A stretch of DNA of 18,928 nucleotides from an uncultured Clostridia bacterium (GCA_947347075.1 CANADC010000019.1:1-18928); one strand, 5' to 3'. Shown: positions 67-11,199, counted from the stretch's first letter. The notes: generated by a model not told the origin, from the sequence alone. Numbers and translations: made by a program.

Positions 67-1248
67 ATGAGTATATTTAGTAGAAATACAAAGGAAAGAC
101 AAGAATCTTTCAGTATGAGAAAGTTCTTTTTTGAGTGCAGATTTGATGATATCTTGAATACAAATAGGCTTTTAAGAGTTGCCAGATATGCCAGAGAATC
201 TACAAATCATCCAGATCAGTTGCAGGCGTTACATAATCAAGCGGAACGTTTAGATTCTTTGATCAAAGAGCATATTTATTTTACAATTGAAGAAAGGCAT
301 CGATATACAGAAAGGGGTATCTCAGGAAGAAGTATAGAAGATCGAGCAGCATTTCAGCTTATGTTGGAAGCAGCCAGACGAAGGGAGTTTGATTTAATTA
401 TTGTTCAAGATATTTGCAGATTTGCTAGGAATTTACGTGAATTATTAAATACAATTGAAGAGTTAAAAGAATATGATATTGGAGTTTTAATACTGGATGG
501 AAAGTATTGGACATTTAATATGGACGAAACAGATATTATTCGTTTGTCAGTTGATGGAGGATTGGCTCAGAGCGAGTCAATGAGGACGGCGAAAAGGGTT
601 AATAATGGTGTTCTTTCTTATAGAAAGAAAGGGCAATTAGTGGTATCAGGGTTATTTGGTTATATTTATGTAAAAGCTGTGGATAGGAAGAATAATACTT
701 TTCGGATTGATCCAGTTAATGGATTGACTGTTAAGACAATTTTTGATTTATATACCGATCCTGATTTAACGAAGCGTATGGGAACTCAAAAAATTGCAAA
801 TTATTTGATTGAACATAAGATGCTGACAGCAAGAGGAGATTTGGGTTGGAGTGCATCTAAGGTAAACCGAGTTCTTAGAAATGAAAAATATATGGGGTAT
901 CTGTTATATGGAAAGTTTAAAGTAGAAGATACCATGACAAAAAAGAAGATTGCAACCAAAATTAAACCAATCAGGGAGGATGTTTATGACAAAGAAGGAA
1001 ATTTGGTAGAACAGTGTAACTTAGTGAAAGGAAATTGGGAGTCAATTGTATCAGAGGAACAGTGGTGGCTTGCTTATCAGATCCGAAATGAAAAAGCAGT
1101 AGATTATATTTATTCAGTAAAAGGTTGTATGGTGAATGGTTTAAGAGAGTCTGTTGATATTATTGCGAATAAAAGTTTCTGTCAATGTGGATATTCGTTA
1201 AGCCCTCAGTATGTTCATACTGCAATATTGGAGGGCTATTACTGTTAA
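67..1248 (+). CDS. Large serine recombinase (resolvase/invertase catalytic domain plus recombinase domain), apparently 3'-truncated within the zinc-ribbon region. It has an unusual ~37-aa N-terminal extension.
   Basis: The catalytic-serine motif VARYARESTNHPDQ matches YxRVSTxxQ. DICRFARN matches the D-R-x-S-R-N region. The GISGRS...DIGVLILDG...VNNGVLSYRKKG block is typical of large serine recombinases. The product is 393 aa against a usual 450-550. It ends CQCGYSLSPQYVHTAILEGYYC, just as a CxxC zinc ribbon begins. The stop codon TAA is provided by the 36-bp repeat at 1243-1278. Confidence 0.85.
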   Translation: MSIFSRNTKERQESFSMRKFFFECRFDDILNTNRLLRVARYARESTNHPDQLQALHNQAERLDSLIKEHIYFTIEERHRYTERGISGRSIEDRAAFQLMLEAARRREFDLIIVQDICRFARNLRELLNTIEELKEYDIGVLILDGKYWTFNMDETDIIRLSVDGGLAQSESMRTAKRVNNGVLSYRKKGQLVVSGLFGYIYVKAVDRKNNTFRIDPVNGLTVKTIFDLYTDPDLTKRMGTQKIANYLIEHKMLTARGDLGWSASKVNRVLRNEKYMGYLLYGKFKVEDTMTKKKIATKIKPIREDVYDKEGNLVEQCNLVKGNWESIVSEEQWWLAYQIRNEKAVDYIYSVKGCMVNGLRESVDIIANKSFCQCGYSLSPQYVHTAILEGYYC

Positions 1249-1278
1249 GATTGCTGTAAAGTAAGAGAGAAAAAGAGG
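1243..1278. repeat. 36-bp direct repeat copy R1 (TGTTAAGATTGCTGTAAAGTAAGAGAGAAAAAGAGG) overlapping the last two codons and stop of the recombinase ORF
   Basis: 34 of 36 positions are identical to 2171-2206. Both copies begin TGT TAA and terminate the ORF they abut. Confidence 0.85.
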
Positions 1279-1305
1279 CTTGAAGAAATGATCAAGCCTT
1301 TTTTA
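1276..1305 (+). terminator. Rho-independent terminator after the recombinase gene
   Basis: Stem AGGCTTGA (1276-1283) pairs with TCAAGCCT (1292-1299) and is followed by a T6 run. Confidence 0.6.
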
Positions 1306-1373
1306 GTTTAGACGATCAGAATAAATTGCATTTTGGGTTATTTTTTGCTATAATTATATTAAAATCGTAGAGT

Positions 1374-1590
1374 TATTTAGTTTCTAAAAGGATATATAAA
1401 AAGTATTTGTTTTCATATAAGATTTTGTTGTTTTCTGTTGTAGACGCTACGATTATAAAGATAGTAATGTGTATATAAAATATGAAGGCTTATGTTTCAT
1501 GAGATAAATGGATATAGGAAAGTGAAACGTTACTTGTCTTATACTGGGAGATATTTATTACAATTTCGGTATATGGAAATGCGGAGGAAC
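1374..1590 (+). repeat. Leader repeat copy L1 (~217 bp; promoter plus upstream noncoding region of cassette 1), ~90% identical to 2223-2431
   Basis: Aligning the two regions by eye gives near-identity from TATTTAGTTT through AATTTCGGTATATGGAAAT. Each copy contains a -10-like TTATTACAAT or TTATTATAAT with an upstream TTGTCT or TTGCCT. Copy 1 has an extra ~90 bp (1591-1680) between the repeat and the RBS. Confidence 0.85.
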
Positions 1591-1685
1591 ATATTGTAAA
1601 TATTTTAATCTAAAGAGAAATAAGTTTTGAGATGATAAATTTAAGAATCATTGAAAAAAATTTGATAAGAAAGGGGGTTTATATA

Positions 1686-1925
1686 ATGGAAGAGCGATTG
1701 GATTGGAAACAAATAGTAGAAAAGTACCCGAACCAGTGGGTTGGTTTAACAGAAGTTGAGTATGAAGAAGATAATGATGCAACAATTAAAACTGCTATTG
1801 TGAAATATACAAATAAATCGAAAGATGAATTAACTTGGATGCAGTTTGAAACTTCTGGTGCATTGATAGGCATTTATACAACACCTGATAATGTATTTCA
1901 GTTAGGAGTACTGGGGGGTTTTTAA
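1686..1925 (+). CDS. Cassette gene A1: small (79 aa) protein of unknown function, translationally coupled to B1
   Basis: RBS AAGGGGG sits 8 nt before ATG 1686. The stop overlaps the B1 start (TAATG). It is ~50% identical to the 2451-2690 product, with shared EKYP-QWVGL, TIK/ESAIV-YT and YTTPD motifs. The supplied ORF starts at 1632, but the RBS supports 1686. Confidence 0.6.
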   Translation: MEERLDWKQIVEKYPNQWVGLTEVEYEEDNDATIKTAIVKYTNKSKDELTWMQFETSGALIGIYTTPDNVFQLGVLGGF

Positions 1926-2176
1926 TGAAACAGTTTACATTACATTTAGTTAAAGAAAAGTCAAGACCTATTGTAGAGCTAAAAAATTGGAATAATATTT
2001 ATGCATTGTTGGATACAGGGGCAATCTATCCTATTTGGACAGCAGATGAAAGGATTCTGATTCGATTTGGTGCAACATTGAAAGAGAAGGGTGTTTCGTT
2101 TGGAGGGTTTGGTGGTAAAACAAGTGGAAATAAAAAATCAACGATAGATTTATTCCTGAAGGGTTGTTCTTGTTAA
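1925..2176 (+). CDS. Cassette gene B1: retropepsin-like aspartic protease, 3'-truncated copy (83 aa)
   Basis: ALLDTGAIYPIW contains the hydrophobic-hydrophobic-D-T-G-A active-site signature of clan AA retropepsins. VSFGGFGGK resembles the Gly-rich flap (HIV PR has IGGIGGF). The homologous copy B2 continues ~70 aa further. B1 is cut short where repeat R2 supplies TGT TAA. Confidence 0.55.
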   Translation: MKQFTLHLVKEKSRPIVELKNWNNIYALLDTGAIYPIWTADERILIRFGATLKEKGVSFGGFGGKTSGNKKSTIDLFLKGCSC

Positions 2177-2206
2177 GATTGCTGTAAAATAAGAGAGAAA
2201 AAAAGG
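2171..2206. repeat. 36-bp direct repeat copy R2, overlapping the stop of B1
   Basis: TGTTAAGATTGCTGTAAAATAAGAGAGAAAAAAAGG matches 1243-1278 at 34 of 36 positions. Confidence 0.85.
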
Positions 2207-2222
2207 TTTGAAATTGCAAAGG

Positions 2223-2431
2223 TATTTAGTTTCCAATATATAAAAAGTATTTGTTTTCATATAAGATTTTGCTGTTTTCTGTTGTAGATGCTACGATTAT
2301 AAAGATAGTAATGTGTCTATAAAATATAAAGGCTTATGTTTCATTAGATGAATGGATATAGGAAAGTGAAATGTTACTTGCCTTATATTAGGAGATATTT
2401 ATTATAATTTCGGTATATGGAAATATAGAGG
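2223..2431 (+). repeat. Leader repeat copy L2 (promoter and leader of cassette 2)
   Basis: Near-identical to 1374-1590. It contains TTGCCT-N18/19-TATAAT and runs directly into RBS AAGGGAGGG. Confidence 0.85.
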
Positions 2432-2450
2432 AATAAAGGGAGGGTTTATA

Positions 2451-2690
2451 GTGTTAGAAGAAAGATTAACGTGGGAACAGATACAAGAAAAATATCCAGA
2501 TCAATGGGTAGGATTATTAGATGTAAAATATGAAGAAAATGATGGTATAACCATAGAATCAGCTATTGTAGAATATACGGGATTGTCGATGGATGCTTTA
2601 ACAAAGATGATGTTGCATGGGAAATGTGTAGCAAGATATACTACACCCGATCATGCATTTTCATTAGGAATGATAGAGGTGTTATCATGA
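2451..2690 (+). CDS. Cassette gene A2: paralogue of A1 (79 aa, GTG start)
   Basis: RBS AAGGGAGGG sits 8 nt upstream of GTG 2451. The product MLEERLTWEQIQEKYPDQWVGL aligns with A1 along its full length. The stop overlaps the B2 start (ATGA). Confidence 0.6.
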   Translation: MLEERLTWEQIQEKYPDQWVGLLDVKYEENDGITIESAIVEYTGLSMDALTKMMLHGKCVARYTTPDHAFSLGMIEVLS

Positions 2691-3146
2691 AACAGATAAC
2701 ATTAAATTTAGATAAAAAACAGCAAAGACCAATGGTATTATTACAATCGGGATTAACTGCTTTACTTGATACAGGTGCTTTTATGCCAGTATGGACAGGC
2801 GGAAAGGAATTGTTAGAAGAAGAATTTGGTGGAGAGTCACAAAATCGTAAGGTTTCATTTTCAGGGTTTGGTGGGAAATTATGGGGGGGATTTATATTCT
2901 GTAACATTGTCAGTTGGTGATTTGATATTTAATCATATGTCAATCATTGTAAGTAATAATTTGGGAATAACACCGTACCAGTTTATTATGAGTGCTACTA
3001 TGTTTGATCATTTAATTTATGAAGTTGATATGAAATGGCATAAACTTAATATAAAAATTCCAGATGATGAGAGTTTTGTTAGAAATTTAAGGTTAGTAGA
3101 TAAGAATGGAAAAATGTATATTTTATGTCATTCTGAACAAAAGTAG
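2687..3146 (+). pseudogene. Cassette gene B2: full-length retropepsin-like aspartic protease (~153 aa), interrupted by a +1 frameshift at the G7 run 2883-2889
   Basis: Frame 2687 reads MKQITL...ALLDTGAFMPVW...VSFSGFGGKLWGG, then stops. Frame 2826 continues DLYSVTLSVGDLIFNHMSIIVSNNLGITPYQF...ILCHSEQK to 3146. Removing one G from the G7 tract joins the two frames into one ORF. That ORF aligns with B1 as far as B1 extends (STIDLFL against SVGDLIF). Confidence 0.6.
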
Positions 3147-5605: not shown

Positions 5606-7525
5606 GTGGGAGCGAAGGATACTTACAATGCACAGAATATAACCGTGTTGGAAGGGTTAGAAGCGGTAAGAAAACGACCGGGAATGTATATTGGGAGTGT
5701 ATCGGTAAAGGGATTAAATCATCTGATTTATGAGATTGTAGATAATGCAGTGGATGAACATTTGAACGGATATTGTGATTCGATCTGGGTGACATTGGAG
5801 AAAGACGGTTCTGCTACAATTAAGGACAATGGACGTGGGGTTCCTGTAGATATGCATCCGAAAGGGCTTCCAGCGGCACGAATTGTCTATACGACACTTC
5901 ATGCAGGGGGAAAATTTGGAGACGGGGCTTATAAGACCAGCGGAGGACTGCATGGAGTGGGGTCTTCTGTGGTAAATGCTCTGTCGGCTTATCTGGATGT
6001 ACAGGTTTTTAAGGATGGCGGAATTCACCATGACCGCTATGAAAGAGGAGTTCCAGTTGTAGAATTAGTGGACGGGCTGCTGCCGATTATCGGAAAGACC
6101 AGACAGACGGGAACAGTGGTTAATTTTTTGCCGGATGAGGAGATTTTTGATAAGATTTATTTTAAAGCGGATGCAGTGAAAAGCAGGCTGCATGAAACCG
6201 CTTATTTGAATCCAGAATTGACGATTTATTTTGAAAACAGACGTCCTGGAGAGGAAGAAAAGGCGGTGTTTCATGAAAAAGAGGGAATTCGGGGGTTTGT
6301 GCGTGCCTTAAATGATGGGAAAGAGACGATACATGATGTAATTGCTTTTCATGGGGAGTCGGAACAGATTGTGGTGGACGTAGCATTTCAGTATATCAAT
6401 GATTTTCAGGAAAATATTTTGGGGTTCTGCAATAATATTTATACACAAGAAGGGGGAACCCATCTAACCGGGTTTAAGACCAGCTTTACAACGGTAATTA
6501 ATAATTATGCACGGGAACTGGGAATTTTAAAGGAGAGAGATGCAAATTTTACCGGGGCAGATGTTCGGAACGGTATGACAGCAGTGGTCTCTATCAAACA
6601 TCCCGATCCACGGTTTGAAGGGCAGACAAAGACCAAGTTGGATAATCCAGATGCAACAAAGGCAGCTTCGCAGATTACCAGTGAAGAACTGCAGCTATTT
6701 TTTGATAAAAATCTAGAAATTTTAAAAAATGTAATTGGATGTGCCGAGAAATCGGCAAAGATTCGAAAAGCGGAAGAGAAGGCAAAGACCAATATGCTGG
6801 TAAAACCGAAGTTTTCATTTGATTCCAATGGGAAATTGGCAAATTGTGAAAGCCGGGATGCTTCCAAGTGTGAGATTTTTATTGTGGAAGGGGATTCAGC
6901 AGGCGGTTCGGCAAAGATGGCAAGAAACCGGCTTTATCAGGCAATTCTGCCGATTCGGGGAAAGATATTGAATGTAGAAAAGGCAACGATGGATAAAGTA
7001 CTTGCCAATGCTGAGATTCAAACTATGATATTGGCATTTGGCTGTGGGTTTTCTGAGGGATATGGAAATGATTTTGATATTTCGAAACTGCGTTATCATA
7101 AGATTATTATTATGGCAGATGCCGATGTGGATGGGGCACATATCAGTACCCTGCTTTTAACCCTGTTTTATCGGTTTATGCCGGAGTTAATCTATGAGGG
7201 ACATGTCTATCTTGCTATGCCGCCGCTTTATAAAGCAGTACCTCAAAGGGGACCGGAAGAGTATCTCTATGATGATAAGGCATTGGAGAAGTATCGAAAA
7301 AGTCATAAAAATTTTATTTTGCAGCGATATAAAGGGTTAGGAGAGATGGATGCGGCACAGCTTTGGGAGACTACTTTAAATCCAGAGACTCGAATGTTAC
7401 GGCGGGTAGAGATTGAGGACGGAAAGATGGCATCGGATGTAACTTCTATTTTAATGGGAAGTGATGTGCCGCTTCGAAGAGAATTTATCTACAGACATGC
7501 CAAAGAAGCGGAAATCGATGCATAA
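5606..7525 (+). CDS. parE: Type IIA DNA topoisomerase ATPase (B) subunit of the GyrB/ParE family; probably topoisomerase IV ParE, given the partner A subunit
   Basis: It aligns collinearly with Bacillus subtilis GyrB and ParE: VLEGLEAVRKRPGMYIGS, LHAGGKFG, GLHGVG, EGDSAGGSAK, PLRGKILNVEKA, MTDADVDGAHI and QRYKGLGEM. GTG start with RBS AAAGGAAG. 639 aa. Confidence 0.6.
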   Translation: MGAKDTYNAQNITVLEGLEAVRKRPGMYIGSVSVKGLNHLIYEIVDNAVDEHLNGYCDSIWVTLEKDGSATIKDNGRGVPVDMHPKGLPAARIVYTTLHAGGKFGDGAYKTSGGLHGVGSSVVNALSAYLDVQVFKDGGIHHDRYERGVPVVELVDGLLPIIGKTRQTGTVVNFLPDEEIFDKIYFKADAVKSRLHETAYLNPELTIYFENRRPGEEEKAVFHEKEGIRGFVRALNDGKETIHDVIAFHGESEQIVVDVAFQYINDFQENILGFCNNIYTQEGGTHLTGFKTSFTTVINNYARELGILKERDANFTGADVRNGMTAVVSIKHPDPRFEGQTKTKLDNPDATKAASQITSEELQLFFDKNLEILKNVIGCAEKSAKIRKAEEKAKTNMLVKPKFSFDSNGKLANCESRDASKCEIFIVEGDSAGGSAKMARNRLYQAILPIRGKILNVEKATMDKVLANAEIQTMILAFGCGFSEGYGNDFDISKLRYHKIIIMADADVDGAHISTLLLTLFYRFMPELIYEGHVYLAMPPLYKAVPQRGPEEYLYDDKALEKYRKSHKNFILQRYKGLGEMDAAQLWETTLNPETRMLRRVEIEDGKMASDVTSILMGSDVPLRREFIYRHAKEAEIDA

Positions 7526-7590
7526 AAAAGGACGAAATCCGAGGATAAAAGGATTGATAGGATAGAAACAAAATGGAGAGGGAATGTGTG

Positions 7591-9834
7591 ATGGCAGAAC
7601 AAATTATTAGCACAGAGTTTGCAGATGTAATGCAGAAAAGTTTTGTAGATTATGCAATGAGTGTAATTACAGCTCGTGCCGTGCCGGATGTGCGGGACGG
7701 GTTAAAGCCGGTGCAGCGCCGGGTTTTATATGCAATGCATGAGTTGGGATTAAACTTTGATAAGCCGCATCGAAAATCGGCAAGAATTGTTGGTGATACC
7801 ATGGGAAAATATCATCCCCATGGGGACAGCTCGATTTATGAGGCACTGGTTGTAATGGAGCAGGACTTTAAAAAGGGAATGGCTTTGGTGGACGGGCATG
7901 GAAATTTTGGATCGATTGAGGGAGATTCTGCAGCCGCTATGCGTTATACCGAGGCACGATTAAAAAAATTTACGCAGGAGGTCTATCTTAAGGATTTAGA
8001 TAAAAATGTAATTGATTTTCTGCCCAATTTCGATGAAACGGAAAAGGAACCAGAAGTGCTTCCAGTTCGGGTCCCCAATATCTTGGTAAACGGAGCGGAC
8101 GGAATTGCAGTTGGAATGGTGACTTCGATTCCGCCTCACAATTTAGGAGAAGTGATTTCTGCAGTAGAGGCATTTATAGAAAATGACGAAATTAGTACAG
8201 AAGAATTGATGGAGTATATAAAAGGACCGGATTTTCCGACCGGAGGGATTGTAATTAATCAAAAGGAGTTAGCAGAAATCTATGAGACTGGCAGCGGAAA
8301 GATTAAAGTTCGCGGGAAATTGGAGTTTGAGCCGGCAAAAAAGAAAAATGAACGGGATAAATTAGTAATTACAGAGATTCCTTATACTTTAATTGGAAGT
8401 AATTTAGGAAAACTTCTTGCCGATATTGCGGGATTGGTAGAAGCGAAAAAAACAACAGATATTGTGGATATTTTAAATCAGAGTTCCAAAGAGGGAATTC
8501 GGATTGTATTGGAATTAAAAAAGAATACCGATATAGAAAAACTTTCGAACCTGCTCTATAAAAAGACAAAATTAGAGGATACGTTTGGAGTAAATATGCT
8601 GACAATTGTAAATGGAAAGCCGGAAAAATTGGGGCTGCGTGAAATTCTTCGTCATCATTTGGATTTTCAGATTGAATTGGCTTCCAGAAAATATCAGTAT
8701 TTATTAAAAAAAGAGCTGGAAAAAAAGGAGATAAAAGAAGGGCTGATACGTGCCTATGATATTTTAGATTTGCTGATTGAGATTATACGGGGAAGCCGTT
8801 CGGTAAAAGAGGTTAAGAAATGCTTGGTGTATGGAGATACCAGTAAAATTCAGTTTAAAAAACAGGCTTCTGAAAAGGCGGCTGCAAAGTTAAATTTTAC
8901 GGAAGCACAGGCTTCTGCTATTTTAGAACTCCGGCTGCAAAAACTGGTGGGATTGGAGATTCAGGCACTGGAGAAAGAGTATAAAGAGATTGTAAAAAAT
9001 ATTGCACAGTATACGGATATTTTGGAGAATCATACTTCTATGCTGAGAGTAATTCGAAAAGATTTGGAAGTGATTCGAAAAGAGTTTTCATTGGAACGAA
9101 AGACAGCCATTTTAAATGCACAGGCAGCGGTTTACGAGGAAGCACCGATTGCCGAACAGGAGATTGTCTTTACGATGGATCGGTTTGGTTATGCGAAAAC
9201 CATGGATCTTTCGACTTATGAGAGAAATGCAGAGACGGTGGAACATGAGAATAAGTATGTCTTTCGCTGTATGAATACCGATAAGATTTGTATTTTTACC
9301 GATACGGGCAGTATGCATCAGATTAAGATGTTAGATATTCCTTTTGGAAAATTAAGAGATAAGGGACAGCCGATTGATAATTTGGGAAATTATTCTAGTG
9401 CAGGAGAGGCGATTGTTGGAATTTTTACATTTTCTTCTATTCGAGAGAGGAAACTTTTTTTTGCTACGAAAAGCGGAATGGTAAAATTGGTAAACGCTTC
9501 TGAATTTGATGTAAATCGAAAGACTATTTTGGCAACGAAATTAGAAGAGCAGGACAGTGTAGTTTGTGTTTGCCCGGTTTTAGAGGAGGATAGAGAAGTG
9601 CTGCTTTATTCTCATGGAGGGTATTTTTTACGGTTTGCTTTGGAAGAGGTGCCGGAAAAGAGAAAAAGTGCATTGGGAGTACATGGGATGAAGATGGCAG
9701 AAAAGGATTATTTGGAGTGGGTGTCGCTGTTAAAAGGCGGACAGGAGTTTTTTGATTTTCGAAGTAAGGGGATAGCAGTGGCAAGAGTAAAAGAGGCAAA
9801 GCGGGATGAAAAAGGAACGAAGCTGCGGATATAG
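7591..9834 (+). CDS. parC: Type IIA DNA topoisomerase A subunit of the GyrA/ParC family; no GyrA box, so probably topoisomerase IV ParC
   Basis: The N-terminal breakage-reunion domain aligns with GyrA and ParC: AMSVITARAVPDVRDGLKPVQRRVLYAM, GKYHPHGD, DGHGNFGS, AAAMRYTEARL. The QRRGGKG GyrA box is absent where it would sit, and the sequence there reads TYERNAETVEHENKYV. The product is ~747 aa with a short C-terminal domain. The start is placed at ATG 7591 (MAEQIIS), with RBS GGAGAGGG. The supplied ORF starts at 7573. Confidence 0.6.
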   Translation: MAEQIISTEFADVMQKSFVDYAMSVITARAVPDVRDGLKPVQRRVLYAMHELGLNFDKPHRKSARIVGDTMGKYHPHGDSSIYEALVVMEQDFKKGMALVDGHGNFGSIEGDSAAAMRYTEARLKKFTQEVYLKDLDKNVIDFLPNFDETEKEPEVLPVRVPNILVNGADGIAVGMVTSIPPHNLGEVISAVEAFIENDEISTEELMEYIKGPDFPTGGIVINQKELAEIYETGSGKIKVRGKLEFEPAKKKNERDKLVITEIPYTLIGSNLGKLLADIAGLVEAKKTTDIVDILNQSSKEGIRIVLELKKNTDIEKLSNLLYKKTKLEDTFGVNMLTIVNGKPEKLGLREILRHHLDFQIELASRKYQYLLKKELEKKEIKEGLIRAYDILDLLIEIIRGSRSVKEVKKCLVYGDTSKIQFKKQASEKAAAKLNFTEAQASAILELRLQKLVGLEIQALEKEYKEIVKNIAQYTDILENHTSMLRVIRKDLEVIRKEFSLERKTAILNAQAAVYEEAPIAEQEIVFTMDRFGYAKTMDLSTYERNAETVEHENKYVFRCMNTDKICIFTDTGSMHQIKMLDIPFGKLRDKGQPIDNLGNYSSAGEAIVGIFTFSSIRERKLFFATKSGMVKLVNASEFDVNRKTILATKLEEQDSVVCVCPVLEEDREVLLYSHGGYFLRFALEEVPEKRKSALGVHGMKMAEKDYLEWVSLLKGGQEFFDFRSKGIAVARVKEAKRDEKGTKLRI

Positions 9835-9910: not shown

Positions 9911-10843
9911 ATGAAAAGGATATGGTTAGGAATTTTCTGCGGGCTTTTGATTTTGGGGCTGGCTGGATGCGGAAAGGAGTTAGAGAAAGCAAATAAAGGA
10001 GGGGTGGATTCGACAGAGAGAATAGAAGAGGGGTATCCTGTTACGGTACAGGGAGCAGGGGGAGAAGAGCTTGTTTTGGAGGCGGAACCTTTGCGGGTGG
10101 TTTCGGTAGGACCTAATATAACGGAATTGCTTTATTCGCTTGGAGTGCAGGAGAAGTTGGTGGGGCGGACGGATTATTGTGATTATCCGAAAGAGGTTCT
10201 TTCCGTGGATACAATTGGTACGCTTTATACACCAGATGTAGAGAAGATCATTAGTTTGGAGCCGGATTTGGTGATTGCTTCAACTCATTTTTTGGATGAG
10301 ACAAAGGAGAAGTTGGAAGCGGTCGGGATTTCGGTGCTGGTTTTGCATGAGGAGAATGAGTTAGAAGGGGTCTATCGTTTGATTGATACGCTGGGGGCGG
10401 TTTTTAATCAAAAGGGACGTGCTTTGGAAATTGTGGAGGATATGCAGAAGCGGATTGCTGCTGTGGAAGAAAAGGTAGCAGAAGTGGAGCCGGTTTCGGT
10501 TTATTATGTGGTTGGATATGGAGATGGCGGGGATTATACGGCGGGGGGAGATACGTTTATTCATGAAATTTTGACTGCAGCGGGTGGACGGAATGTGGCG
10601 GAAGAAGTGAGTGGGTGGAGTTATTCTTTGGAAAAGCTGCTGGAGGCGGATCCAGATGTGATTCTTGTTTCGGAGGCGGATTATGAGGGATTTGTTGAGA
10701 CGGAGCCTTATGCAGGGCTTCGGGCGGTGAAGGAAGGGAGGGTTTATACGATAGATGAAAATTTGTTGAATCGGCAGTGTGATCGAAATGCGGATGCGGT
10801 TGAGCAGATTGCTCGGATGCTTTATCCGGGGGTGTTTTCATGA
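9911..10843 (+). CDS. ABC-transporter substrate-binding lipoprotein of the BtuF/FecB class (cobalamin or iron-siderophore type)
   Basis: The lipoprotein signal peptide has an LAGC lipobox. LRVVSVGPNITELLYSLGV, VGRTDYCDYP and LEPDLVIAS match the Peripla_BP_2 fold. No permease or ATPase gene is adjacent in this window. Confidence 0.75.
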   Translation: MKRIWLGIFCGLLILGLAGCGKELEKANKGGVDSTERIEEGYPVTVQGAGGEELVLEAEPLRVVSVGPNITELLYSLGVQEKLVGRTDYCDYPKEVLSVDTIGTLYTPDVEKIISLEPDLVIASTHFLDETKEKLEAVGISVLVLHEENELEGVYRLIDTLGAVFNQKGRALEIVEDMQKRIAAVEEKVAEVEPVSVYYVVGYGDGGDYTAGGDTFIHEILTAAGGRNVAEEVSGWSYSLEKLLEADPDVILVSEADYEGFVETEPYAGLRAVKEGRVYTIDENLLNRQCDRNADAVEQIARMLYPGVFS

Positions 10844-10880
10844 TTTGCTTGGAGTAAAAAATAGAAGGGGACGCTGGAGT

Positions 10881-11127
10881 GGGGGAGTGATTCCGTTCTG
10901 TTGTTCCGCTCTCTGGAAAGGTAGAAGCTCTAAGACTTCTGAATTTCGGTGTATCCAGCCGGACGGATCGGGGTGCAATTCGCCCGTACAGCGGGCTAAA
11001 CACACCCCTTTTTTTGCCATTCGGGAATGGCAAAAAATCCTAGTGGATCGACAGAAGTCTAAGGGCTTCTAACTTTCCTCCGAAGTCACAGCAGAACGGA
11101 ATCGCTCCCCCGCTCCGGCTGTTTTTT
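10881..11127. repeat. Long imperfect inverted-repeat element (~231 bp plus T7) between the binding-protein gene and the next promoter; MITE-like or a large structured RNA
   Basis: GGGGGAGTGATTCCGTTCTGTTGT (10881-10904) pairs with ACAGCAGAACGGAATCGCTCCCCC (11088-11111). GGAAAGGTAGAAGCTCTAAGACTTCTG (10915-10941) pairs with CAGAAGTCTAAGGGCTTCTAACTTTCC (11052-11078). Together these give about 50 bp of two-segment complementarity enclosing ~110 nt that contain two terminator hairpins. A T7 run follows at 11121-11127. Confidence 0.55.
10970..11038. terminator. Bidirectional terminator pair
   Basis: GGGGTG...CACCCC (10970-11008) followed by T7 (11009-11015) terminates + strand transcription. GCCATTC-GGG-GAATGGC (11016-11032) is flanked by a T-run upstream and an A-run downstream, so it can also terminate - strand transcription. 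Confidence 0.6.
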
Positions 11128-11170
11128 TCTGTCGGTAGGTTGGATTTGCGGAATGGTTTGCAGTTTAATC

Positions 11171-11199
11171 TTGACAATTCTTCCATAATCATCTAGAAT
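11171..11199 (+). promoter_or_regulatory. Sigma-A promoter of the PLP-enzyme gene
   Basis: TTGACA (11171-11176), a 17-nt spacer, then TAGAAT (11194-11199). Confidence 0.5.

Follow-up and report, generated by a model that had tools for sequence, protein, structure and literature searches.

A TwoAYGGAY-like folded repeat, amplified in a mouse-gut Lachnospiraceae genome, is an insertion between a substrate-binding protein gene and an aminotransferase gene

We analyzed a stretch of 18,928 nucleotides from an uncultured Clostridia bacterium (GCA_947347075.1, CANADC010000019.1:1-18928; hereafter the window) and in particular a long inverted-repeat element located between a gene for a substrate-binding protein (SBP) and a gene for an aspartate aminotransferase. 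The element is a solo copy of an interspersed intergenic repeat that occurs at least 150 times in one genome. The repeat comes in two length classes, forms convergent pairs, preserves its base pairing through compensatory changes, and has a core that matches the catalogued RNA motif TwoAYGGAY (RF01731 in the Rfam database); at the window locus the orthologous site of sister species is empty. The source is an uncultured mouse-gut Lachnospiraceae, and identical SBP proteins are encoded in GCA_910585255.1, GCA_948762045.1, and several ENA assemblies. We consider it probable that the repeat is non-autonomous and propagates in folded form, as a unit, aided by a factor encoded elsewhere, and that the insertion of the window copy is neutral or mildly useful.

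The window copy is built from two nested inverted repeats. The outer repeat (I1, 10873-10904/11088-11119) has arms of 32 nt that are 88% complementary, and it encloses an inner repeat (I2, 10915-10941/11052-11078) of 27 nt with 89% complementarity, in agreement with the nested arms described in an initial annotation of this region. Within the window, the arm sequences are found only at their own site and as the reverse-complemented partner arm, where 0.00-0.01 matches would be expected by chance. On the + strand the region 10860-11135 folds with -160.2 kcal/mol, compared with -88.2 +/- 5.7 kcal/mol for shuffled sequences (z -12.6), and on the - strand it folds with -135.7 kcal/mol (z -10.9). 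The predicted paired rod is nearly continuous and spans 271 nt (10861-11131), so that the element is longer than the 231 bp first assigned to it; the inserted DNA measures ~308-313 nt. The strong inner hairpins of the initial annotation are both present (H2, and H3 with 13 perfect pairs), as is the T7 run after the element (11122-11128).

We scanned one genome per species for the central motif of the element, GCAATTCGCC-N9-GGCTAAACAC. At least 120 eight-kb stretches were listed, comprising 754 kb, and all listed stretches with the core motif belong to the metagenome-assembled genome (MAG) MGBC128194 (Lachnospiraceae). The listed stretches of this MAG contain at least 152 exact core motifs, and a profile built from aligned copies produced at least 181 non-overlapping matches, at least 110-123 of them full length. 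All copy statistics given below (classes, spacing, and orientation) refer to copies within these 754 kb. The public assemblies of the SBP-aminotransferase locus, ten in number, all contain the element. Four of these contigs end inside it (L006, L008, L009, and L010; individual stretches are designated by L and a number), and L010 runs into a paralogous centre in which all stems are compensated, which represents either an assembly switch or a recombinant. The core motif had 0 matches in viral contigs, where three other patterns gave none or short chance matches, and no similarity to the element was found in plasmid and phage collections. A metagenome collection contained nine stretches with the motif, of which eight are from the same species and one is a chance match in coding DNA. 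Of the 110 full-length copies, 20 share more than 60 nt with crude open reading frames (ORFs; at least 90 aa); these calls are unverified and several lie within the rods themselves. A coding reading of the apex (GTG CAA TTC GCC...TAA) was rejected because the variants compensate base pairs and thereby alter the peptide.

The window copy is an insertion relative to sister species. In the sister species represented by L142 (SBP 79% identical) and L144-146 (75%), the order parC-SBP-aminotransferase-proC-NUDIX is kept, and the SBP and aminotransferase genes are separated by 64 nt (L142) or 135 nt (L144) with no element between them. A three-way alignment of the window with L142 and L144 assigns ~308-313 extra nt to the window, with the inserted DNA at 10849-11156. 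The extra bases lie between the SBP stop codon and the sequence T(T/A)TGCA(G/A)TTTAAT...TTGACA, with the promoter conserved on the far side. In the sister species this promoter-like site of the aminotransferase gene is located immediately 3' of the SBP stop codon and forms the right edge of the ancestral intergenic region. The element occupies the space between the SBP stop codon (10843) and the aminotransferase promoter (11171).

Three syntenic comparisons, at the SBP-aminotransferase locus, downstream of the PEPCK gene, and between comEC and topB, identified relatives without the element. The site downstream of PEPCK is a second filled/empty pair, with TTTG at both junctions. Here a composite of ~1 kb, consisting of a long copy, a tandem array (64 nt x 5.2), and a short copy, is bordered by the native terminator of PEPCK on one side and by the promoter of the following gene on the other, both of which are conserved. 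In a relative with 91% TopB identity the profile detected no family member in 22 kb where the MAG has five, and the closest relative (TopB 94% identical, from the same sample as L142) has none in ~28 kb by the same profile and lacks both the PEPCK-downstream and the comEC-topB composites. The initial annotation had held that a single-copy sequence without conservation in related genomes and without a transcript would speak against an element. The sequence is clearly not single copy; it is absent from the related genomes examined and has many paralogs in the source genome. As a separate observation, the comEC-topB region (L077 7092-8000 together with L013 1-124 on MAG contig 42, compared with L147 8775-9980 and L153 7340-7440) differs among three lineages. 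In the MAG, a composite of two elements is present and the comEC ORF stops earlier, with a remnant of its former 3' end left past the composite; in one relative the region contains a 101-aa ORF and an acetyltransferase gene, and in the closest it is just 50 nt long.

All copies share one plan. Read 5' to 3' in the + orientation of the window, a copy begins with GGACGCYRGAG, followed by a variable stem segment, a conserved loop (GCTGTTCCGCTCTCC), and a stem of 25 bp in which two A.A mismatches are conserved. About 12 unpaired, highly variable nt and ATCCARCCGGACGGAYC lead to the apex, which consists of H2, a T run, H3, an A run, and TCCTAGTGGATCGA. The returning arms contain the conserved loop CCTCCGAAGTCAC and end in CTCTGGCTG and a T-rich tail. 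Every copy has the inner hairpins as conserved parts, and the internal-loop sequence, which is only partly paired, is near-invariant across 37-110 paralogs. The variable segment of the outer stem (helices 1-2) differs among paralogs and is complementary inside each copy.

The initial annotation had suggested a covariance analysis, and this revealed compensatory changes in more than half of the pairs. We aligned 37 copies over 73 pairs in seven helices and used column shuffles and structures slid by 1-3 columns as controls. Standard pairs occupied 97.7% of the cells, compared with 85.0% in the shuffles and 41-51% (~44%) in the slid controls. Changes on both sides were seen in 40 of the 73 pairs and in 339 cells, against 88.9 cells in the shuffles. 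The seven helices are each 96-100% paired. Helix 3, the second stem, is 97.2% paired with nine pairs changed on both sides; helices 5 and 6, which form H2, are 99-100% paired and exchange GGGGTG/CACCCC for GGCACG/CGTGCC and GCCCG/CGGGC for GCCTC/GAGGC; and helix 7 (H3), for which several alternative stems occur, reaches 99.5% pairing with compensation at five pairs. In the outer stem, columns 38-43 include every one of the four Watson-Crick pairs and are hardly ever broken, and a comparison copy by copy found arms whose sequence is private to each copy and which still match each other. Inverted DNA repeats alone leave pairing in RNA, pairing in single-stranded DNA, and arm-to-arm correction indistinguishable. 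Every copy retains the two A.A mismatches and the asymmetric internal loops, which argues against simple homogenisation of the arms. An 8-bp complementarity outside the nesting had been taken as a hint of alternative folds. It exists, although its second 8-mer lies at 11114-11121 and not at 11113; the 8-bp helix is possible in 88% of cells across the 37 paralogs, the same as in shuffles, with one compensated cell and no excess covariation. At the positions for which the two pairings compete, covariation links the 3' bases to the 5' end of the rod (columns 16/266 and 17/265), and it gave the alternative folds no support.

From these observations we infer how the element spreads and how it might affect transcription. 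A folded single strand, of either DNA or RNA, would be recognised by a factor encoded elsewhere, and the unit would spread in this way. Such recognition would explain why the rod and its specific internal loops are kept while the helix sequences drift.

Several results weigh against this interpretation. An all-against-all comparison of 587 ORFs in the 754 kb found no transposase and no family with more than two members, in a MAG that is fragmentary. The longest ORF between one wider pair of copies (L041) resembles a truncated host gene of the esterase type, with HGGGF and GDSAGG motifs recognised by eye. The inverted repeats are sub-terminal, with non-complementary inserted DNA of 19-24 nt on the left and ~29 nt on the right outside them. 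Flanking direct repeats over 90 copies, whose true ends are uncertain, gave no family-wide signal of a target-site duplication, and the TTTG(C) duplication is therefore a lead only. Among the stretches listed, the taxonomic range of the element is one MAG. At the window locus, the orientation of the Rfam match is antisense to the flanking genes, and a simple consensus scan for terminators calls none of the hairpins, nor H2 with its U7 or the rod with its U7. Finally, only 2.3% of the pairs are broken while the loops differ strongly between copies, suggesting purifying selection on each copy and thus a function at the level of the host as opposed to passive junk.

We compared the element with known classes of bacterial repeats. 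Bacterial palindromic repeats (Correia/NEMIS, ERIC/IRU, RUP, BOX, bcr1, and REP/REPIN) and miniature inverted-repeat transposable elements (MITEs) are small, non-coding, intergenic, and present in high copy number. The element resembles them in occurring in both orientations, being able to form long hairpins when co-transcribed, having expanded in one lineage, leaving empty sites in relatives, and breaking assemblies; like MITEs, its units are small (~245-310 nt), lack a conserved ORF, and are present in at least 150 copies. Unlike these repeats, it is larger (~250-310 bp), has a conserved apex with several hairpins, and occurs in two length classes that pair strictly tail-to-tail. It also differs from them in having sub-terminal inverted repeats and no clear duplication of the target site, and no related autonomous insertion sequence or RAYT gene was found. 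The initial proposal of a MITE-like non-autonomous element fits with respect to copy number, insertion, and missing coding capacity; terminal inverted repeats were not found, nor was an autonomous partner in the 754 kb. REP/REPIN-RAYT systems consist of palindromic units of 20-40 nt in inverted doublets and a gene for RAYT, a Y1 transposase, that is flanked by them. With units of ~250 nt, the element does not correspond to this arrangement, and no candidate gene flanked by elements was seen, although no profile search for RAYT covered the whole genome. Retron non-coding RNA, IS200/IS605 ends, Tn3-type inverted repeats, and integron attC sites were considered informally and dropped, as no associated gene or end structure was apparent.

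The arrangement of the copies bears on whether the host makes use of them. The long class (257-272 nt, 61 copies) includes the window copy and has an outer stem that is ~10 bp longer, a G-rich 5' flank, and the tail CCTGCCGGTAGATTTATGGTTGATTCAT...; the short class (244-256 nt, 49 copies) has the 5' flank ...TTTCCAAAGA and the tail GTATTGTTCCACAATTTACGTTT. Neighbouring copies no more than 1.5 kb apart are convergent in 40 of 40 pairs, with their 3' tails facing each other, and 18 of the 22 classifiable pairs combine a long and a short copy. Over longer distances the order is an element on the - strand, genes or an operon, and an element on the + strand. Based on crude ORF calls, long copies lie 3' of a co-directional gene in 36 of 58 cases (median 51 nt past the stop codon), and 32 of 44 short copies point toward the start of a gene on the opposite strand (median 176 nt).

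Parts of the element resemble terminators. On the + strand, H2 is G+C-rich and followed by U7, as intrinsic terminators are, and a second U7 comes after the rod as a whole; together with the A6 run before it, the window rod has the layout of A run, hairpin, and U run known from two-way terminators. Unlike intrinsic terminators, H2 contains a large internal loop on the + strand, H3 has reversed polarity, and these structures are parts of a repeat and did not evolve locally. The initial annotation had described the element as wrapped around, or inserted at, a bidirectional terminator, a description that found no support here. On both strands H3 has its U run on the 5' side and its A run on the 3' side, the reverse of what such a terminator needs, and the U7 belongs to H2 on the + strand. 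Moreover, the empty sister sites have no hairpin, and the next promoter follows the stop codon almost at once. Transcription arriving from parE-parC-SBP would meet H2 and its U7, with a predicted end near 11015, and on read-through the complete rod and its U7, with a predicted end near 11128, before the aminotransferase promoter. The insertion is thus predicted to act as a portable terminator or insulator. If the whole rod were transcribed, it would form a long double-stranded RNA that RNase III could cut.

These properties raise the alternative that the copies are domesticated and kept by the host as punctuation between operons, serving as insulators or terminators, as determinants of RNA stability, or as RNase III sites. 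Long copies would follow the ends of operons and short copies would precede the next promoter, the two facing each other and blocking transcription from both sides. The positions of both classes relative to genes, the strictly convergent pairs, and the longer-range order are in accordance with such a role, as are the low fraction of broken pairs next to highly variable loops and the presence of H2 with U7 in every unit in its own + orientation. In addition, the composite downstream of PEPCK leaves the native terminator and the next promoter intact outside the insertion. However, 38% of the long and 27% of the short copies break the orientation rules, which rest on crude gene calls, and sister species manage without elements at these positions. 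The convergent pairs could just as well stem from a composite mobile unit or from a preference for certain insertion sites. We regard punctuation maintained by the host as an unlikely primary explanation, albeit one that is compatible with the proposed origin as a repeat.

Other repeats accompany the copies. A second interspersed repeat of ~166 nt, TTAACCT(C)ATCAAGGAAGTCCCCCGCTTCTAAGCCGCTAAGGCGAAAGCGGTGGG...GGGACTTCCTTG, with ~98.8% identity between copies, is often found just 3' of the elements. It is present at L016 6805-6970, L059 1239-1403, and L137 3005-3170, and adjoins elements in L023, L061, L070, L074, L106, and L114; its copy in L016 had no Rfam match at the gathering threshold. A composite spacer at L013 6817-7151 contains 5.2 copies of a 64-nt unit (90% matches) that reiterates the tail of the short type together with the bases at which its rod begins. 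Degenerate tandem 15-17-mers of the 5' terminus occur upstream of long-type copies in L016, L046, L058, L067, and L126.

The initial annotation had also listed a structured noncoding RNA among its explanations, and the core of the element does match a catalogued motif. The - strand of window positions 10910-11084 aligned to the full RF01731 model (positions 1-168) with 56.7 bits, above the gathering score of 43 (E 3.4e-9). Paralogs scored 68.1 bits (L016), 77.2 and 70.3 bits (two copies in L035), and 55.5 bits (L059), always on the same relative strand. The match surfaced when 201 nt (10895-11095) were scanned; with the whole window at the gathering threshold, or with 501 nt at E<=10, the speed filters suppressed it and no match was reported. 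Likewise, at least 12 of 16 copies went unreported in an Rfam scan of 64 kb, which gave no scores for them. Other Rfam matches at paralog loci, L068 471-646 (-) and L074 6196-6278 (-), are a lysine riboswitch (111 bits) and a tRNA.

Rfam has listed TwoAYGGAY since 2010 as a motif of unknown function from Clostridiales and gut samples (Weinberg et al. 2010, Genome Biol 11:R31). It was named for two terminal loops with the sequence AYGGAY and has a P1 stem of "24 bp with only 2 mismatching pairs"; its authors rated it as probably RNA and not cis-regulatory, with the flags "COV nc loc" and neither "rep" nor "tson" (Weinberg et al. 2010). The published seed contains at least five copies from one Psychromonas genome. 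The element shares with TwoAYGGAY a P1 of ~24-25 bp with two mismatches, which encloses two hairpins joined by AG and followed by a CG..U.CGUC junction, and the window copy and four paralogs match the full-length covariance model above threshold. Unlike TwoAYGGAY, the element has a first hairpin that is extended by flanking U and A runs, an additional outer stem (~45 bp) and tails specific to each class, both outside the model, and a far higher copy number of at least 150 in one genome. Neither of its terminal loops carries AYGGAY: the sequence is absent from the model strand in all 111 copies, whose loops are for example UUCUCGAA/CUUCUGA and CUGUA/CUGCA. A single ACGGAY is present on the opposite strand in 88 of the 111 copies, in the junction and not in a loop. 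The GGA loops of TwoAYGGAY have been proposed to bind CsrA (Gardner & Eldai 2015). Since AYGGAY loops are missing in every copy, we treat the family as a loop-less variant to which the CsrA idea does not transfer.

The - strand, on which the model matches, folds better than the + strand in 88 of 110 copies. This is because the conserved internal loop of H2 closes there: CAATTC/TAAACA on the + strand becomes U.G, G.U, U.U, U-A, U-A, and A.G on the - strand, turning H2 into a near-continuous helix of 17 bp, and in every copy the two G.U pairs that close this loop on the - strand are A.C on the + strand. This is so whatever the orientation to genes and, judged from sequence, points to the - strand as the one for which the fold is probably built. 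Hairpins of single-stranded DNA tolerate G.T pairs as well, so that this preference for one strand is no proof of an RNA. There is also a correlation between which strand folds better and the direction of neighbouring genes (p = 3e-8 overall, and within both classes too). The GC skew of the genome is extreme, with (G-C)/(G+C) at +0.35 on the + strand of the window (G 4987, C 2416) and at +0.45 at third codon positions (called ORFs of L011-L130), and a mutational skew can thus explain this correlation. On its + strand, the window copy contains five G.U pairs and not one A.C, and the bias in wobble counts across the family is only ~2-fold. Given this small bias and the GC skew, we did not count the asymmetry of G.U wobbles as evidence of selection at the RNA level.

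One could conclude from these data that the copies are small RNA genes of the TwoAYGGAY type, transcribed from the - strand, whose products would work in trans, for instance by titrating CsrA or another RNA-binding protein. The Rfam score, the strong covariation, and the better fold of the - strand with its G.U closure of H2 are what such genes would show, in line with the rating by Weinberg et al. (2010) and the role suggested by Gardner and Eldai (2015). On the other hand, the loops on which the CsrA idea is based are absent from the model strand, and no promoter-like site was found at a fixed distance on either side or strand of the copies. At least 150 copies, strictly convergent pairs, and empty sister sites are the behaviour of a repeat and not of a regulatory small RNA gene, and, given the tolerance of G.T in single-stranded DNA, the strand preference is not proof of an RNA. 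A family of small RNA genes seems to us quite improbable. A very long terminator or attenuator that evolved in place for the SBP or aminotransferase genes, another early suggestion, would suit the position between two co-directional genes and the hairpin with U7 and second U7 after the rod, but the same sequence stands at least 150 times beside unrelated genes and the orthologous intergenic region of the sister species lacks it entirely, which leaves this explanation practically no chance.

The features of the window copy and its surroundings are listed in Table 1. All genes flanking the element are on the + strand. Further upstream, window positions 1229-2700 contain a tandem duplication of a cassette of small ORFs with a period of ~0.8-0.9 kb, visible as direct repeats at 1392-1589/2236-2433 (93%), 1689-1810/2457-2578 (70%), 1875-1938/2637-2700, and 1229-1284/2157-2212. 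The duplication lies downstream of a 393-aa ORF (67-1248), whose counterpart at the start of L001 carries a Recombinase domain (PF07508).

Table 1. Positions of the element, its parts, and neighbouring features in the window
Feature	Position	Strand	Remarks
parE-like gene	5606-7525	+	
parC-like gene	7573-9834	+	
SBP gene (Peripla_BP_2 substrate-binding protein)	9911-10843	+	directly 5' of the element
DNA absent from the orthologous site of sister species	10844-11161	both	insertion plus two TTTGC pentamers
TTTGC, left	10844-10848	+	candidate 5-bp duplication or target; empty site of L142 has TATGC
Outer stem, 5' arm	10861-10904	+	GGGGACGCTGGAGTG...; long class; A6 run (10856-10861) before the rod; from I1 and the minimum free energy (MFE) fold
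Conserved internal loop	10905-10914	+	TCCGCTCTCT; partner strand 11079-11087, TCCGAAGTC
Second stem, equivalent of P1 of TwoAYGGAY	10915-10941 with 11052-11078	+	25 pairs, two conserved A.A mismatches (U.U on the - strand)
Hairpin H2	10970-11008	+	GGGGTG-CAATTC-GCCCG-TACAG-CGGGC-TAAACA-CACCCC; T7 next to it (11009-11015); terminator-like on the + strand
Hairpin H3	11010-11022/11025-11037	both	TTTTTTGCCATTC GG GAATGGCAAAAAA; perfect 13-bp inverted repeat (I5)
Hairpin H4	11037-11048	both	ATCC TAGT GGAT; in the MFE fold only, absent from the family consensus structure
Outer stem, 3' arm	11088-11131	+	ends ...CTCCGGCTG, then T7 (11122-11128)
Sequence at the element ends			GGACGCCAGAG
TTTGC, right	11157-11161	+	candidate duplication
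Promoter-like site of the aminotransferase gene	11171-11199	+	TTGACA-17-TAGAAT; 11 of 12 consensus matches; outside the element
Aspartate aminotransferase gene	start 11221 or 11282, end 12570	+	3' of the element
proC, NUDIX gene, xerD-like recombinase gene	beyond the aminotransferase gene	+	

Overall, our analysis adds to a core motif that was already known the finding that a TwoAYGGAY-like rod can be a massively amplified, insertion-polymorphic, and pair-forming repeat. The repeat breaks short-read assemblies of its host species, and because the default filters of Rfam can miss it, it will usually go unannotated. The only specific function put forward for TwoAYGGAY, that of a CsrA sponge, rests on the GGA loops. 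As a speculative extension that we hold with considerable doubt, rods of the TwoAYGGAY type may be mobile elements that depend on structure, moving through a folded single-stranded intermediate without terminal inverted repeats, a clear target duplication, or a nearby transposase. In this lineage they might have been recruited as paired, inward-facing punctuation, and the tandem termini (the L013 array and the 15-17-mers) might be footprints of copying. The repeat-like behaviour of the family moves the question from the protein partner of a small RNA to what copies the rod, and to what a 120-bp double-stranded RNA or DNA hairpin does between operons.

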